Assembly (NCBI GenBank): GCA_002305115.1
Contig: DBQF01000005.1
Location: forward strand, 1-53,430
Direction of reading: 5' to 3'
From: a candidate division WWE3 bacterium UBA1401
GTDB taxonomy: Bacteria > Patescibacteriota > WWE3 > UBA101185 > UBA10185
Length of the DNA stretch: 53,430 nucleotides
The position numbers and the translations under genes are program-made. The notes below the pieces were generated by a model. That model was not told the origin of the DNA. It saw only the letters and a list, made by a program, of their open reading frames with translations, and did no database searches. Each line of letters begins with the position of its first letter. The first letter of the stretch is position 1. This document shows positions 11,734-49,977 of the stretch, piece by piece.

Positions 11734-12770
11734 AACTTGAATCCCTGGAACTAACCAACTATAGAAATCATCAGAAACTGAAGCTGAACTTTATGGAAAA
11801 CACTACTCTTATCACAGGGCCAAACGGTAGCGGCAAGACAAATATTCTGGAAGCTATCCATCTTCTTTCCACAACCAAACCGTTTCGCGGCAAGTATGAT
11901 AAAGACATCATCAGTCACGAAACAAATTTTGCCAGAATAGAAGCTTTAGTGAACGAAACCAAACTGGAATTTGTTATTATGACTAATCCAAGATTTGACA
12001 ATGCGTCTATAAAAAAGGTCAAAGTAAACGGCGTAGCCAAAACGCTTTACGGCTTTGCAAGTGCGCTAAAAAGTGTTTTGTTTTCACCTGAAAACATAGA
12101 GCTTATAACCGCCTCCCCTAGCCACAGAAGAAAATATCTAGATAGCGTGTTAAGCCAGGTAAGTGTTGACTACAAACGGGCGCTACATGATTATACTAAG
12201 GCTGTTAGGCAAAGAAATAAACTACTGGAAACTATTAATGAGACAGGTAGAGGCCTGGATCAGCTGGAATTCTGGGATGCCAAAGTTGTAGCTCTTGGAA
12301 TAACTATTCAAGAGCATCGCACTAACCTTTTTACGTTTATGCAAGAAACATTAACAACCAAAGTGCATGAAATTGACCCCAGTATGGAACTACAGCTGTG
12401 TTATGCGCAAAGTGCAATATCCAAAGACAGAATTACAAGTATCAGGCAAAAAGAGATTTGGGCAAAAAGAACTTTGGTTGGTCCGCATAGAGATGACTTT
12501 TTGTTTTTGCTTGAGGATAAAAACTTAGCGGAATTTGGTTCACGCGGGCAGCAACGTACTGCTATTTTAGCACTAAAACTTGGGGAAATAGACTTCATAG
12601 AGAATCAAACCAATGAAAGGCCGATTTTACTGCTAGATGATGTTTTTTCGGAATTTGACGAAGCGCACAAAGAAGCCGTGCTGACTGTTTTAGATAAGCA
12701 GCAGACGGTTATTACGAGTACAAATCCTATAGATGCTTTATATGATTATCAACAAGTGCAGCTGAATTAA
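11730..12770 (+). CDS. recF: DNA replication/repair protein RecF
   Basis: GPNGSGKTN, GPHRDD, SRGQQR and LLLDDVFSE motifs; ATGA overlap with mutM. Confidence 0.96.
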   Translation: MKLESLELTNYRNHQKLKLNFMENTTLITGPNGSGKTNILEAIHLLSTTKPFRGKYDKDIISHETNFARIEALVNETKLEFVIMTNPRFDNASIKKVKVNGVAKTLYGFASALKSVLFSPENIELITASPSHRRKYLDSVLSQVSVDYKRALHDYTKAVRQRNKLLETINETGRGLDQLEFWDAKVVALGITIQEHRTNLFTFMQETLTTKVHEIDPSMELQLCYAQSAISKDRITSIRQKEIWAKRTLVGPHRDDFLFLLEDKNLAEFGSRGQQRTAILALKLGEIDFIENQTNERPILLLDDVFSEFDEAHKEAVLTVLDKQQTVITSTNPIDALYDYQQVQLN

Positions 12771-16732: not shown

Positions 16733-17278
16733 ATGCTAAAAAAGCTCTTTGGCTACTACAAAGTACCCTTTCTCATTACTCTTACTCTTTCAGTTGTGTT
16801 GGTAGCTTTAGGGGTGGAAAAAGAAATTACAACTATTGTGCTCATACTGGCAGGTACTATCTTAGGTACTTTTGTACTAGATCTTGATTACTTTCTTAGT
16901 GCTTATTTTCTCGAACCAACTTCGGATTTTGCCAAAGACTTGAGAAGTTATATCAAACACAAAGACTTTGGCAATGTATTCAGCTATATCTACCACCACA
17001 GAGATGACATTAAAGACAAAACTTTAAATAGTATGATCTTCCAGATAGTTTTAGCAGGCGCTTCTTTGCTTGTAGTTTCATCAGAAACCACAATTCTACT
17101 CAAAGCACTAGTTATTTCAGCATTTGCAAACTCTCTGTACAGGATGGCAGAGCATATATTCGAACATAAAACACAGGATTGGTTCTGGGCATTAAAAACA
17201 CCTCCTACTACCCAAACACTGCGTTACTATTCTGCAATACTTTTAAGCATACTCATCCTTAGTTTAGGGTTATTCTAG
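16733..17278 (+). CDS. Hypothetical integral membrane protein
   Basis: 181 aa with several TM segments; TACAAT-N7-ATG. Confidence 0.8.
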   Translation: MLKKLFGYYKVPFLITLTLSVVLVALGVEKEITTIVLILAGTILGTFVLDLDYFLSAYFLEPTSDFAKDLRSYIKHKDFGNVFSYIYHHRDDIKDKTLNSMIFQIVLAGASLLVVSSETTILLKALVISAFANSLYRMAEHIFEHKTQDWFWALKTPPTTQTLRYYSAILLSILILSLGLF

Positions 17279-17281
17279 CAA

Positions 17282-17920
17282 GTGTACGGACCCCTAATAG
17301 CCCTAGCTATACTTATTGCTACCCTTACCGCAGAACAGTTAGCTAGAATAAAGAAGCTTAACACCGAATTAATATGGCAAGCTTTGATTTGGGTCATTGT
17401 AGCAGGCGTCGTAGGCGCGAGGCTATACCATGTAGTAGATTATTGGGATTATTACATTCAGAATCCATTACAAATTGTGCAAATTCACAAAGGAGGCTTA
17501 GGCATATTTGGAGCTTTCATTGCCGGAAGTATTGCACTTATTATTTTTCTTAAGATAAAAACCCAAGATGTTCTTGACTGGCTAAATGTTTTTGCTGTGG
17601 TACTTCCATTAGGACAAGCCATTGGCAGGTGGGGCAACTATTTTAATAAAGAGCTTTATGGCAGAGGACCTATACCGTTTTTTGCAGCAGAATCATTCCT
17701 CAATTTGATCTTGTTTTGTGTCTTATTTGTAAACTTCAGAAAGCAATCGGAAAAGTCACTTGCTTTATATCTCATTGGCTACGGCATCATCAGGTTTCTT
17801 TTAGAATTTTGGAGACAGGATAGCTGGAGAATAGATAGCATAAATATAGCTCAAATTATTTCCACAGCATTTCTCATTACGGGAAATGCATTGCTTTTTC
17901 TTTTTAATAGAAGAGTTTAA
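17282..17920 (+). CDS. lgt: Prolipoprotein diacylglyceryl transferase
   Basis: GARLYHV, GGLGIFG, QAIGRWGNYFN and RFLLEFWR motifs. Confidence 0.95.
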   Translation: MYGPLIALAILIATLTAEQLARIKKLNTELIWQALIWVIVAGVVGARLYHVVDYWDYYIQNPLQIVQIHKGGLGIFGAFIAGSIALIIFLKIKTQDVLDWLNVFAVVLPLGQAIGRWGNYFNKELYGRGPIPFFAAESFLNLILFCVLFVNFRKQSEKSLALYLIGYGIIRFLLEFWRQDSWRIDSINIAQIISTAFLITGNALLFLFNRRV

Positions 17921-34162: not shown

Positions 34163-34993
34163 ATGCCCCAAGCTGCCACTAACCCCACATTAAAGGAATT
34201 AGAACTCATCGCCGTAAATATTCGACGCGCTATTATTGGCATGATAACTCAAGCACAGTCTGGCCACCCGGCAGGAGCACTAGGCACCACAGATATTATC
34301 ACTGCGTTATATTTTTGTGAGCTTAAACCCGAAGACGACTTTATACTTTCTAATGGCCATATCTGTCCGGTTCTTTACGCGGCTCTTGCCGCAAAAAGTA
34401 TTATTGATTCGCGGGAATTAGCTACGTTCAGACAAATAAATACCAGATTGCAAGGTCATCCGCACAACACAGAACTTCCGGAACTTGCAACTTCAAGCGG
34501 GCCACTTGGCCAAGGCTTATCGCAGGCAATAGGTATGGTATTAGCCAACAAATTGGATAACAAACACGGGCACGTTTTTTGCATGATAAGTGACGGGGAA
34601 CTTCAGGAAGGCCAAACCTGGGAGGCACTTATGTACGCAGGCGTAAACCAACTAGCGGGCTTAACAGTTATAGTAGACAGGAATCATATTCAGATAAGTG
34701 GAAATACAGAAGATGTGTTGTCACCAGAGCCTTTAACAGCAAAGCTGGAAGCATTTAATTGGGCTGTTATTGATATAAACGGCAATAATATGGCAGTTAC
34801 ACTGAAAGCTCTGAAAGAAGCAAAAGCAGACAATCTTCCAACTGCTATAATAGCTAATACTATTCCCGGCAAGGGTGTAGAATTTATGGAGTATCAATTT
34901 AGTTGGCACGGCAAAGCTCCGAGTAAAACTGAGGCAGAACAGGCTCTTAAGGAGCTTGATACTCTGGAAGCACGTGTTAGGAGTAAGTCATGA
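34163..34993 (+). CDS. Transketolase, N-terminal subunit
   Basis: SGHP, LSNGH, LQGHP, GPLGQG and SDGELQEG motifs. Start moved to ATG 34163, 7 nt after TGcTATACT. Confidence 0.95.
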   Translation: MPQAATNPTLKELELIAVNIRRAIIGMITQAQSGHPAGALGTTDIITALYFCELKPEDDFILSNGHICPVLYAALAAKSIIDSRELATFRQINTRLQGHPHNTELPELATSSGPLGQGLSQAIGMVLANKLDNKHGHVFCMISDGELQEGQTWEALMYAGVNQLAGLTVIVDRNHIQISGNTEDVLSPEPLTAKLEAFNWAVIDINGNNMAVTLKALKEAKADNLPTAIIANTIPGKGVEFMEYQFSWHGKAPSKTEAEQALKELDTLEARVRSKS

Positions 34994-46174: not shown

Positions 46175-47131
46175 TTAAAGTAAATCATGCGCTACTTCCA
46201 CCCCAAGCAGGCCAAACCCCCAGTCCAGCATCAACACCATATCACCCTTCCTATCAACACTATTTAGCACCACCCCAACAACTTCCCTGCCCTCATTCTC
46301 CGCGTATGTAACCAAACAAAGACCGGCTTCTTCCGTAAACCCAGTCTTCACACCTTTAACTCCAGGATAGGTTGTTAACAAATTAGTCTGGTTATACAGA
46401 TACATATACTTATGGCCATCACTTGCAAGTTCCTTCTCAACTGTAGCCACAATCTTTTTAAACTCCGGATTTTTGAGTGCATAACGGGTTAACTTTGCTA
46501 AATCCAGCGGTGTGCTATAAGTAGCATTGTCTAGCCCACTTGGGTCAGCAAAATACGTGTTTTTCAAACCCAGTTCCTTGGCTTTTATGTTCATCCAGTC
46601 AATAAACGTATCCACATCACCCGCTACTCCTTCTGCAATAGCGTACGCTGCGTCATTTCCGGAATGTAAAATAAGCCCATATAACAACTCTTCCAGCAGG
46701 TAAATCTCCCCCGCACTAATTTGCATGCTATTTTCCCCCACAGACGCAGCATCTTCCGAAACAAACAACTTATCATCAATCTTTTTATGCTCTAGTGCCA
46801 CAACGGCAGTCATTATCTTTGTCAGGCTGGCAATTTTATATTGTTTGGAAGCATATTTTTCAAACAGAATGGTACCTTCATTTATATCAACAACCACTCC
46901 CGCAGACCCGGCAATATCGGGTTGATTGGTTAAAATATAGGAAGAAGTTACTTTCCAATAGGGTTCGCTGTCATAAGAAACCAACAAAGTTTCTTCGTAG
47001 CTTTTCCGGGTGCCTTCGGGCATAACTAAACCTGTTACTAACAGGCTTGATCCTTGAGCCCGGCTAGCTATAATGTCATACCCAGCCAAAATAACCGCCA
47101 CTAAGCCAATTACAATAAAAAACCTCTTCAT
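46175..47131 (-). CDS. D-alanyl-D-alanine carboxypeptidase (peptidase S11)
   Basis: SLTK, SGN and KTG motifs; N-terminal anchor. Confidence 0.94.
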   Translation of the reverse strand: MKRFFIVIGLVAVILAGYDIIASRAQGSSLLVTGLVMPEGTRKSYEETLLVSYDSEPYWKVTSSYILTNQPDIAGSAGVVVDINEGTILFEKYASKQYKIASLTKIMTAVVALEHKKIDDKLFVSEDAASVGENSMQISAGEIYLLEELLYGLILHSGNDAAYAIAEGVAGDVDTFIDWMNIKAKELGLKNTYFADPSGLDNATYSTPLDLAKLTRYALKNPEFKKIVATVEKELASDGHKYMYLYNQTNLLTTYPGVKGVKTGFTEEAGLCLVTYAENEGREVVGVVLNSVDRKGDMVLMLDWGFGLLGVEVAHDLL

Positions 47132-47151
47132 AACATGTTAGAATACCTGAT

Positions 47152-48564
47152 ATGGAAACTGTTTACAAAAAAGTGTTTGTTACAACCGCAATCGACTATG
47201 CCAATGCTACTATTCACATTGGCCATGCGTACGAAAAAGTACTGGCTGATGCTATAGCCAGGTATTATCGTGCAAAAAAAGGTGAAAATAACGTATACTT
47301 CACAACCGGTACTGACGAACACGGTATTACTAACCAGCAAGCCGCTGAAAAAAGAGGTATAACCCCACAAGAACACGTCCAAGACATTTCAAGTCAAGAC
47401 CAGGCTGAAATTGACAGCTTAAATGTTTCCTACACCCGCTTCTTCAGAACCACCAGCGAAGACCACAAACACAAAGCACAAGAATTCTTCACCAAATCTA
47501 TGGAAAACGGTGACATCTATAAGAGCGCTTATAAAGGATTGTATTGTGAAGGATGTGAAGCCTACAAAACGTTATCCGAACTCACCGAAGACTGCAAATG
47601 CCCGCTGCATCCCACCAGGCAAATTCAGGAGTACGAAGAAGAAAACTACTTTTTCAAGTGGAGTAAGTACGAGGGATTCTTAAAAGAATTAATAGAAACC
47701 AATCAATTGCAAATTTTGCCAGGAGGCCGAAAAAAAGAGATGCTCGCCTTTATAGAAAACGGCATCCAAGATATTCCCATCAGTAGACCTACCTACAAAT
47801 TGTCCTGGGGTATACCTGTGCCAAATGACCCGGAACAGGTTATTTACGTATGGTTTGATGCACTTATTAATTATGTAACTTCAGGCGAGGCTAATGGTTT
47901 TTGGGATGACGATACCTATATTATTCATTTTGTAGGCAAAGATATTGCCAGATGGCACACTCTTTTGTGGCCGACTATGCTTAAAAGCGCAGGGTACAGA
48001 TTACCAAACACTGTGTACGTTCATGGCTTTATTAACCTGGAAGGCCAAAAGATCAGCAAATCTAGAGGTAACGTTATACGGCCTTCGGAACTTGTGGAGA
48101 AATATGGAACAGATGCAGTTAGATATTATTTCTTAAAACACGGGCCAATAACAGAAGATGTAGATATTTCGATAAAGCACTTTGAGGAAGTATATAACGC
48201 CGATTTAGCCAATGGTTTGGGCAATACCACCGCCAGGCTTGCAAAGCTGGCCGAAAAAGCCAAGTTAAGTCTAGATATTTCTCCAAAGTTTACGCTTGAA
48301 ATTAAAGACTTTAGGGTAGACTTGGCTATAAATGAACTTCAGCAGAAGTTAACAGAGCTTGATAAACACATAAACGAAAACACTCCGTGGGCCATTGAAG
48401 ATGAAACCAAGCTTAAAGAAGTGCTTACCACCGAAATTACACAACTAGTAAATATTGCAGAAAATCTCAAACCCTTTATTCCTGAAACAGTTACCAAAGT
48501 ACAGACAACGTTTTTAGAAGGCCCGATAAAAGCCCCGGAACCTTTGTTTCCCCGAATTTCCTGA
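47152..48564 (+). CDS. metG: Methionine-tRNA ligase (short form)
   Basis: HIGH, GTDEHG, CEGCE, YVWFDAL and KISKS motifs. Confidence 0.97.
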   Translation: METVYKKVFVTTAIDYANATIHIGHAYEKVLADAIARYYRAKKGENNVYFTTGTDEHGITNQQAAEKRGITPQEHVQDISSQDQAEIDSLNVSYTRFFRTTSEDHKHKAQEFFTKSMENGDIYKSAYKGLYCEGCEAYKTLSELTEDCKCPLHPTRQIQEYEEENYFFKWSKYEGFLKELIETNQLQILPGGRKKEMLAFIENGIQDIPISRPTYKLSWGIPVPNDPEQVIYVWFDALINYVTSGEANGFWDDDTYIIHFVGKDIARWHTLLWPTMLKSAGYRLPNTVYVHGFINLEGQKISKSRGNVIRPSELVEKYGTDAVRYYFLKHGPITEDVDISIKHFEEVYNADLANGLGNTTARLAKLAEKAKLSLDISPKFTLEIKDFRVDLAINELQQKLTELDKHINENTPWAIEDETKLKEVLTTEITQLVNIAENLKPFIPETVTKVQTTFLEGPIKAPEPLFPRIS

Positions 48565-48576
48565 TACAATCTAGGT

Positions 48577-49032
48577 ATGCTGTTAGCTAAGAATAGGAAA
48601 GCTTTATATAATCATGAAATTCTGGAAAAGTTTGTGGCAGGACTAGTACTTAAAGGTTATGAGGTTAAGGCTATCAGAGAAGGTAATGTTAGTTTTGAGG
48701 GTGCATATATTGTAGTTAGGGGAAAAACCGCCTGGCTTGTAAATTTAACCATCAGCAAATACTCAAAACAAAGCCAAGATGTTCCGGAAGCTGAGCAGCG
48801 CCGGGACAGACAGCTGATTTTGCATGAGCAGGAAATAAATAAGCTTAGGCAGGAAGTTAGCCAGAAAGGTAAAACAGCAATTCCCTTAGCTTTATTGCTG
48901 CAACATAATTTGGTAAAATTGGAGCTGGCAATAGTAAAGGGCAGGAAAGAATACGAGAAGAAAGAAGTTACAAAGAAACGTCAGATTGAACGGGATTTGC
49001 AACGTGAACGTAAGGGGATGTACGGGCTTTGA
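48577..49032 (+). CDS. smpB: SsrA-binding protein
   Basis: NRKA, GLVLKGYEVKAIR and KGRK motifs; the last 19 nt overlap the tmRNA. Confidence 0.96.
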   Translation: MLLAKNRKALYNHEILEKFVAGLVLKGYEVKAIREGNVSFEGAYIVVRGKTAWLVNLTISKYSKQSQDVPEAEQRRDRQLILHEQEINKLRQEVSQKGKTAIPLALLLQHNLVKLELAIVKGRKEYEKKEVTKKRQIERDLQRERKGMYGL

Positions 49033-49405
49033 TTGAAAGCACTTTGAAATACAAAAGCAAGCCTAGTTTGTTAGCAACTAGCAAAAACTAACACAAGATA
49101 CATGCCGACAGTTTTTCTGAAGACATGGAGCCTGCATTAGTAGGCGCTATGGCTTAAGGTTTTACCTTTAAGCCTGGCCCGGGTTCTTCTTCCCTAGAGG
49201 AGAGCTTTGGGTCTTATAAAACTAGGGTGAGGGAGCTTAACAGCCCAGGTAAGTTTCCAAGAGCGTAGAGCTCAATACTAATGGGCACATGAGAGGTTTT
49301 AGGTTTGCCAAAATACCTTGCTTCTCATTATAATTTTTGGCTAAGCTTGTAGATTTTTGTGTTTGGTCTTTCAAGACGGGGGTTCAACTCCCCCCATCTC
49401 CACCA
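49014..49405 (+). ncRNA. ssrA: tmRNA; tag ORF 49104-49157 encodes (A)ADSFSEDMEPALVGAMA
   Basis: 5' GGGGATG pairs with 3' CATCTCC-A-CCA, including G3-U70. T arm GGGGG-TTCAACT-CCCCC. Resume context AUACAU-GCC and an Ala-ending tag. Confidence 0.93.
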
Positions 49406-49569
49406 TTCTTCGCAGCGAAGCAAGAAGAATGTCCTGCGAAGCCCTTTAGGGCGAAGTAGGACAATCAACTCTATCATCTGCTACGAATGGCACAGCCATC
49501 TTCGGCGAAGAATGTCCTCCCGCCTTCACCAAGGTTACGGCGGACAAGGCGTGTACTAGAGCACAGCCA
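49404..49569. repeat. Palindrome-rich repeat cluster directly after the tmRNA 3' end
   Basis: Two units of cat(t)cttc...gaagaatgtcct plus a family C hairpin (49404-49461, 49497-49548). cgaatggcacagcc at 49484-49497; gcacagcca again at 49561-49569. Confidence 0.8.
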
Positions 49570-49623
49570 CGTCAAATAAACAATGTATCCGGCAATACTA
49601 ATTGGTATAATTCCCATGCGTAT

Positions 49624-49977
49624 ATGGTCTATATAATCCAAAGTATAAACTTCCCTAAAAACACATACATCGGCTATACCACAAATATCAATAAAAGATT
49701 ACAAAAACATAACCAAGGAGGTTCTTATCACACTTCCAAGTACAAACCATGGAAGTTACTATACTTCTCAGCTTTTGCTACTAAAAAACTAGCATTGGAT
49801 TTTGAAAAATACCTAAAGTCTTCCTCTGGAAAGGCTTTTACTAGGAAAAGGTTGATAGGAGTTAAGAAAGGAATTCCACAACCTCTTCTGCCAATGCATC
49901 CTCATACCCCACATACTGATGATGTGCCCCCTCCAGCAAAACCACCTCACAATCCTTCGTACATAGGACGGGCCTAG
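49624..49977 (+). CDS. Small GIY-YIG nuclease with a probably non-homologous C-terminal extension
   Basis: VYIIQS...YIGYT...RLQKHN...FEKYLKSSSG. Confidence 0.88.
   Translation: MVYIIQSINFPKNTYIGYTTNINKRLQKHNQGGSYHTSKYKPWKLLYFSAFATKKLALDFEKYLKSSSGKAFTRKRLIGVKKGIPQPLLPMHPHTPHTDDVPPPAKPPHNPSYIGRA

Follow-up and report, generated by a model that had tools for sequence, protein, structure and literature searches.

An smpB reading frame that ends inside ssrA in a WWE3 bacterium, and a probable ssrA promoter within smpB codons

In Escherichia coli, the messenger RNA for the rescue factor ArfA is cleaved by RNase III, so that a non-stop arfA mRNA is translated and its product is tagged and degraded whenever tmRNA-SmpB is active. 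ArfA therefore serves as a ‘backup’: its truncated, untagged protein is released, and becomes active, when trans-translation fails. A second system of related logic involves SmpB itself. One of the commonest neighbours of smpB is the tmRNA gene, ssrA (PMC4131195), and in ‘Candidatus Carsonella ruddii’ the two genes overlap (Mao et al. 2009, as cited in Hudson, Lau and Williams 2014, Front Microbiol 5:421, PMC4131195). Hudson et al. (2014) pointed out that maturation of the Carsonella tmRNA should leave a non-stop smpB mRNA, which would be a substrate for its own product, and that the overlap was found nowhere else among 2031 genomes (PMC4131195). The original prediction for the locus described here pointed to the Carsonella case and supposed that nothing similar had been noted for the CPR; both points hold, since the Carsonella overlap is documented as above and a full-text literature search returned no published description of an smpB/tmRNA overlap in the CPR. 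The concept of a non-stop smpB message is thus already published, and only the lineage (CPR, with intact components) is new to the literature.

The window analysed here, which is the whole stretch of 53,430 nucleotides from contig DBQF01000005.1 of the WWE3 bacterium UBA1401 (assembly GCA_002305115.1), contains a single tmRNA gene, placed by ARAGORN at 49014-49405 on the forward strand. Identical ends are returned by Infernal with the Rfam model RF00023 (111.3 bits against a gathering score of 47, E 3.7e-44, model positions 1-374 of 374). In the acceptor stem, 5' GGGGATG (49014-49020) pairs with CATCTCC (49395-49401), including a G3-U70 pair, and is completed by the discriminator A and an encoded CCA; this 3' portion (49395-49405) lies approximately 380 nt past the 5' strand. 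The heptamer GGGGATG is unique in the smpB-ssrA stretch and is therefore the sole possible 5' partner of the acceptor strand. The tag reading frame (49104-49157, forward strand; gene positions 91-144) begins with the resume codon GCC, runs for 17 codons to a TAA stop, and encodes ADSFSEDMEPALVGAMA, ending in ...VGAMA. The gene accordingly displays a full-length, one-piece match to RF00023, a tRNA-Ala-like acceptor stem, and a tag with a resume codon, a stop and a hydrophobic end.

Upstream and on the same strand, an open reading frame of 151 codons (48577-49032) encodes SmpB (Pfam PF01668, 148 bits, with residues 4-146 on profile positions 2-142 of 143). When the protein is aligned to solved SmpB chains, K146 falls on residue 156 of the 160 in E. 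coli SmpB, with the basic C-terminal tail included. The third base of codon K146 is G49014, which is also G1 of the tmRNA; codons 147-151 (GMYGL) and the TGA stop (49030-49032) correspond to tmRNA positions 2-19. The two genes consequently share 19 nt (49014-49032, forward strand), comprising the 5' acceptor strand and the nucleotides that follow it, exactly as originally proposed. The five codons in the overlap lie beyond the Pfam profile and past the conserved part of the tail, and no data on the loss of only the last five to six residues of SmpB were found in a published review. The genome (846 kb in 6 contigs, 89.7% complete) carries one smpB and one tmRNA, together with two full-size class-I release factors, and TGA is accordingly taken to be a stop. 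In the public annotation this SmpB is only 132 amino acids long, with an apparent start at an internal GTG (codon 20; window 48577-48636). Alignment to relatives, and the presence of a -10 element six nucleotides before the upstream ATG, support the 151-residue form starting at 48577 over the shorter call.

A survey of the class placed this junction in context. RF00023 was used to search 134 class genomes, 114 of which had a tmRNA, and the DNA upstream of each was scanned for smpB with a hidden Markov model built from the first batch; smpB lay directly upstream of ssrA, on the same strand, at 94 loci. The spacer between the smpB stop and tmRNA G1 forms a continuum, from -19 nt (the window), -19, -18, -8 and -8, through 3 (four loci), 5 (two loci), 11, 12, 12, 14 and 15, and onwards to 729 nt. 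Measured across WWE3 in this way, overlap is found at five of the 94 smpB-ssrA loci; the five represent as many genera within a single family, occupy all three reading frames between them, and encode SmpB proteins that are 53-66% identical. One of these genomes (G132) has an overlap of 18 nt and two congeners with spacers of +15 and +27 nt, and another shares both the frame of the window and its K-G-M joint. Relative to its relatives, the junction alignment indicates that the window lacks approximately 36-48 nt, a stretch that takes in the five final codons, the stop and the spacer. Among the best 120 database homologues of SmpB, many C-termini are translated tmRNA 5' sequence (...WG, ...RG, ...GDDRI, and ...GM plus three residues), the G132 protein being one of them. 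Overlaps of this kind therefore keep arising and are tolerated, yet among relatives they are sporadic rather than conserved, which speaks against the earlier suggestion of a selected arrangement.

The same data bear on whether the junction is genuine. A deletion or collapse in this metagenome-assembled genome might have created a false joint between smpB and ssrA, and the assembly (six contigs, incomplete by about a tenth) has no close relative with which to check it, the best SmpB match being only 69% identical. Such an artefact is nevertheless highly improbable. Homology of the smpB frame to relatives extends as far as K146, and the tmRNA is complete and has a perfect acceptor stem. Comparable junctions exist in four other genomes (one of them with the same frame and joint), and many SmpB proteins in the databases have C-termini that derive from tmRNA sequence. 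The same homology through K146 led to the rejection of a frameshift or sequencing error as the origin of the overlap.

Two further observations from the survey concern tmRNA genes elsewhere in the class. In six genomes of one family (G033, G055, G057, G058, G060 and G062) the matches to the tmRNA model extend over only about 135 nt, with scores of 53-68 bits, and the tmRNA of that family may be strongly reduced, permuted or in two pieces. Separately, two genomes carry a second full-length tmRNA away from smpB (L055, on contig 97 of G006, and L074, on contig 75 of G080), with the 5' ends GGGGGTG and GGGGACG; these could represent contamination, a copy carried by a phage, or a genuine second gene.

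The smpB gene appears to possess a promoter of its own. As noted in the original prediction, the arrangement TGaTACAAT-N6-ATG is present at 48562-48579, where the candidate extended -10 element (48562-48570, forward strand) ends 6 nt before the start codon and takes its TG from the TGA stop codon of the upstream neighbour, metG (methionyl-tRNA synthetase; 47152-48564, forward strand). Of 93 relatives, 47 (four of the five overlap loci among them) have a -10 hexamer that ends 5-8 nt ahead of the smpB start. Because so little room is left between the -10 and the ATG, the smpB mRNA would be leaderless, an interpretation that the pattern in relatives supports.

This type of promoter is not restricted to smpB. 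The window contains 12 TGNTANAAT sites, a total that shows no excess over shuffled sequence (12 against 13.5), so that any information lies in where the sites fall with respect to start codons; six of the 12 lie 6-12 nt before the start codon of an open reading frame of 117-470 amino acids (metG, smpB, a GIY-YIG gene and three others). On the strength of that placement, the extended -10 is considered to be a working, largely leaderless promoter type of this organism. It is illustrated by the element TGtTAGAAT of metG (47136-47144, forward strand), which ends 7 nt before the metG ATG. That gene thus apparently has its own leaderless-type promoter (47136-47154), and a -35/-10 pair reported by a generic scan at 47047-47074 is probably not the relevant one. 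Five other TGNTANAAT sites (12564-12572, 17272-17280 and 17396-17404 on the reverse strand; 2025-2033 and 34843-34851 on the forward strand) have no long open reading frame starting 4-14 nt downstream, and could be promoters of small RNAs or of antisense transcripts, or else chance matches.

Past the CCA of the tmRNA, the interval 49406-49977 opens directly with a run of GC-rich inverted repeats containing repeated ‘gcgaag’ and ‘gaagaatgtcct’ units. Downstream of these repeats lie a TGGTATAAT promoter (49603-49611) and then the small GIY-YIG nuclease gene (49624-49977). Together, the repeats and the nuclease gene may constitute a mobile element at the 3' end of the tmRNA gene.

The question of where transcription of ssrA begins is central to any reading of the overlap. 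Relatives with longer spacers have an evident ssrA promoter, either an extended -10 (TGnTAnAAT) or a TATAAT, whose hexamer ends 11-48 nt before G1; the window is devoid of the near-G1 promoter, with its -10 in the spacer, that is typical of those relatives. The original prediction saw no obvious -10 inside smpB either, and supposed on that account that the two genes are probably co-transcribed. That observation is probably wrong: a perfect extended -10, TGGTAAAAT, is found at 48911-48919 on the forward strand, on smpB codons L112-V-K-L115, and is kept at synonymous sites in 31 relatives. Its hexamer ends 95 nt upstream of tmRNA G1, with a predicted transcription start near 48924-48928. (A simple sigma-70 scan reported no promoter inside smpB; its result was set aside, because such a scan requires a -35 hexamer that extended -10 promoters do not have.)

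Several properties of this element suggest that it is more than a by-product of the protein sequence. The corresponding TG(G/A)TAAAAT is found at the homologous smpB codons in 31 of 70 family loci, all of them in the family of the window, whereas 3.1 carriers would be expected from the codon usage of the same smpB genes across those 70 loci. The amino-acid motif at the 9-mer site, (L/M)(V/I)K(L), is near-universal across the class, and in the 31 carriers other conserved residues have scrambled synonymous codons (positions for K are 50-83% AAA, and positions for L use five or six different codons). Since the other synonymous sites of the same genes have been scrambled to this degree, the exact 9-mer does not appear to have been merely inherited.

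The internal element and the spacer promoter also tend to replace one another. Among the 31 loci with the internal motif, 28 have no -10 within 8-50 nt of G1 (including eight of the ten carriers with spacers of at least 30 nt), while 46 of the 63 loci that lack the internal motif do have a -10 in that interval, often the identical 9-mer. The internal motif is found in all five overlaps, in 20 of the 23 loci whose spacer does not exceed 24 nt, and in 11 of the 71 loci with longer spacers. What is present inside smpB is therefore an extended -10 of TGnTAnAAT consensus, conserved beyond coding need and largely exclusive with a promoter in the spacer, with the kinship of the genomes incompletely controlled in these counts.

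The limits on that comparison are specific. The carrier group is defined by the motif itself, so that the contrast between carriers and non-carriers is partly circular, and the 9-mer sits on conserved amino acids in genomes that may form a single clade. A tree of SmpB (149 columns) is largely unresolved; the best tree needs 10 changes of promoter type, and a single origin is compatible with the data. An independent-pairs test of motif against spacer provided one well-supported pair only and hence had no power. The distance from the candidate -10 to G1 (95 nt) is also far above that of the spacer elements in relatives, and the implied leader is correspondingly longer. Taken together, the sequence comparisons nonetheless indicate that ssrA probably has its own promoter within smpB, at TGGTAAAAT, and that roughly one in three of the WWE3 genomes surveyed apparently carries an ssrA promoter in smpB codons 112-115. 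A literature search of titles and abstracts found no published ssrA promoter inside smpB.

Many relatives (L005, L017, L018, L021, L030, L042, L050, L051, L054 and others) have, directly before G1 and downstream of the -10, a leader motif of 12-15 nt, GTAC-N-TTTAAAAA-N-AT, which may be a conserved RNase P leader or an initial transcribed sequence. The window is without this motif.

With these elements in hand, a course of events for the locus can be proposed. A leaderless smpB mRNA would be made from TGaTACAAT-N6-ATG and would run on through ssrA, since there is no room for a terminator between the two genes and none can be placed between the smpB stop and the 3' end of the tmRNA. Most tmRNA would probably come instead from the internal extended -10, as a precursor whose leader of about 88 nt would be removed by RNase P at G49014. 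Any long smpB-ssrA transcript would be cut by RNase P at the same bond, which would leave an smpB mRNA ending in ...CGU-AA, with no stop codon. A transcript becomes a substrate for RNase P only after ssrA has been transcribed in full, because the 3' acceptor strand lies so far past the 5' strand. Ribosomes that finish before that strand has been made and the message cut would consequently yield full-length SmpB, while those arriving later would stall after R145 and require rescue by tmRNA-SmpB; the resulting product, SmpB 1-145 with the tag attached, would presumably be degraded. From what is established about RNase P and trans-translation, we infer both transcription starts, the read-through, the cleavage of the long transcript and the tagging; the absence of a regulatory role is likewise an inference.

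The same scheme offers an account of how the overlap may have arisen. Once the promoter is inside smpB, the spacer would carry no signal and could be deleted; TGA triplets in the conserved 5' end of the tmRNA (GAUGA, UUUGA and GAUUGA) would catch the smpB frame within a few codons. The reading favoured here, with somewhat better than even confidence, is that the overlap marks the far end of spacer erosion in a lineage of WWE3 with its ssrA promoter in smpB, and that its effect on smpB messages is a tolerated cost of compaction and not a selected switch. Overlaps in five genera could also mean, however, that the layout is mildly useful.

Some of the machinery that processing and rescue would require is represented in the genome. 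An RNase P RNA of bacterial type A is found on contig 2, with a full-length alignment (E 4e-29) and a score of 91.8 bits, just under the Rfam gathering score of 100, and ClpP is present. The remainder of the search returned absences or a sub-threshold match, each within a genome that is 89.7% complete: ArfA was not found; for ArfB, the RF-1 domain occurs only in the two full-size release factors; and for RqcH, the match to the NFACT_N domain is sub-threshold at 26 bits. No RNB domain (RNase R or RNase II) was found in the same 89.7%-complete genome, which may reflect either a real absence or the missing portion of the assembly. The partner that usually degrades non-stop mRNAs is RNase R, and its absence, if real, would matter for the fate of a non-stop smpB message. 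A terminator scan detected no intrinsic terminator after ssrA.

These results bear on the feedback loop of the original prediction, in which smpB and ssrA are obligatorily co-transcribed, each matured tmRNA destroys one smpB message, and the tagging of SmpB forms a selected, arfA-like loop that sets the balance of SmpB to tmRNA. Part of that proposal is sound: an RNase P cut at G49014 would remove the smpB stop, because transcripts that reach the stop have entered ssrA, and the RNase P RNA is present. The proposal also gains from the reality of the overlap and the missing terminator space, from the presence of ClpP and a normal-looking tag, from the recurrence of overlaps in five genera, and from the same logic having been described for Carsonella by Hudson et al. 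2014 (PMC4131195). The conserved extended -10 inside smpB can, however, supply tmRNA independently, so that tmRNA need not come from smpB transcripts; overlap is sporadic (5/94), and spacers of 3-27 nt persist in close relatives, the congeners of one overlapping genome among them.

For the arfA analogy to hold, untagged truncated protein would have to be set free when trans-translation runs low. With neither ArfA nor ArfB found and only a sub-threshold match to RqcH, no tmRNA-independent route for the release of an active truncated product was identified in this 89.7%-complete genome, and the yield of full-length SmpB would then be set by the timing of cleavage relative to translation, not by SmpB activity. 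Cut messages would give no usable SmpB at any level of SmpB, and hence would act as a fixed ‘tax’ and not as feedback. A selected loop built on obligate co-transcription is accordingly judged improbable. A more elaborate variant, considered slightly less probable again, is a ‘stoichiometry governor’ in which SmpB binds the nascent tRNA-like domain of the co-transcript and speeds its folding and cleavage by RNase P, so that excess SmpB shuts off its own message; if that were true, cut messages would be cleared by the very complex that they encode, and the arrangement would amount to true negative feedback.

At the other extreme, the overlap may have no practical consequence. Transcripts of smpB might be rare compared with those from the internal promoter, and might be translated to the stop before the 3' strand of the tmRNA is made; ribosomes on the first 19 nt may in addition block folding, so that almost no non-stop smpB mRNA would ever be translated. 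The stretch of about 380 nt between the stop and the 3' acceptor strand would indeed give coupled ribosomes a window of time, and SmpB and tmRNA are otherwise intact in the five lineages that tolerate the overlap. Against this, once a message has been cut, any further initiation on it leads to a stalled ribosome. RNase P acts quickly in model bacteria, where an mRNA also goes through many rounds of translation. An overlap entirely free of consequence is therefore regarded as unlikely, although it is a more serious contender than the selected loop, and a tolerated cost of spacer erosion is still preferred. A regulatory role for the overlap is possible and is without support in this analysis.

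If processing does occur as proposed, the message of a single smpB gene would be made stop-less by the maturation of its partner RNA, which amounts to a constant load on trans-translation, and that load would fall on a cell in which no backup rescue factor was detected. An ssrA promoter within smpB codons would, for its part, explain both the vanishing spacers and the database SmpB proteins whose C-termini are tmRNA sequence. The apparent embedding of the promoter, in about a third of the class, is probably a more useful observation than the overlap itself, with value for annotation and for evolutionary work.

Comparison with the described systems clarifies which features are shared. The usual smpB-ssrA pair with a separate ssrA promoter resembles the window in its same-strand adjacency, in an apparent sigma-70-type extended -10, and in a 5' end generated by RNase P. 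In that common layout, however, the ssrA promoter occupies the spacer, whereas in approximately a third of WWE3 genomes it would lie in smpB codons 112-115, and five of them have no spacer.

The resemblance to arfA is that an endonucleolytic cut would make the mRNA of a rescue factor non-stop and its product a substrate for trans-translation. The cut itself differs, being made by RNase III at a hairpin in arfA and, as proposed here, by RNase P at a tRNA-like end. The more important difference is that the truncated product in WWE3 would be SmpB itself, so that a failure of trans-translation would not free it, and no alternative release factor was found.

The closest counterpart is Carsonella, where, as in the window, the smpB frame enters a tmRNA gene on the same strand; as in WWE3, the overlap is confined to some of the strains. 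In the window, the smpB stop lies inside the mature tmRNA, on the same strand, and RNase P is available (with its RNA match just under the gathering score). The Carsonella system is decaying, whereas the window encodes a full-length SmpB, with its tail reaching E. coli residue 156, and a tmRNA with a strong full-length match. In WWE3, moreover, the overlap recurs among relatives (at five of 94 loci) and is accompanied by a candidate ssrA promoter inside smpB, a feature that is undescribed for Carsonella. WWE3 lineages are free-standing and their components are intact, and the feedback idea of 2014 can therefore be tested in them in a cleaner setting than Carsonella provides.
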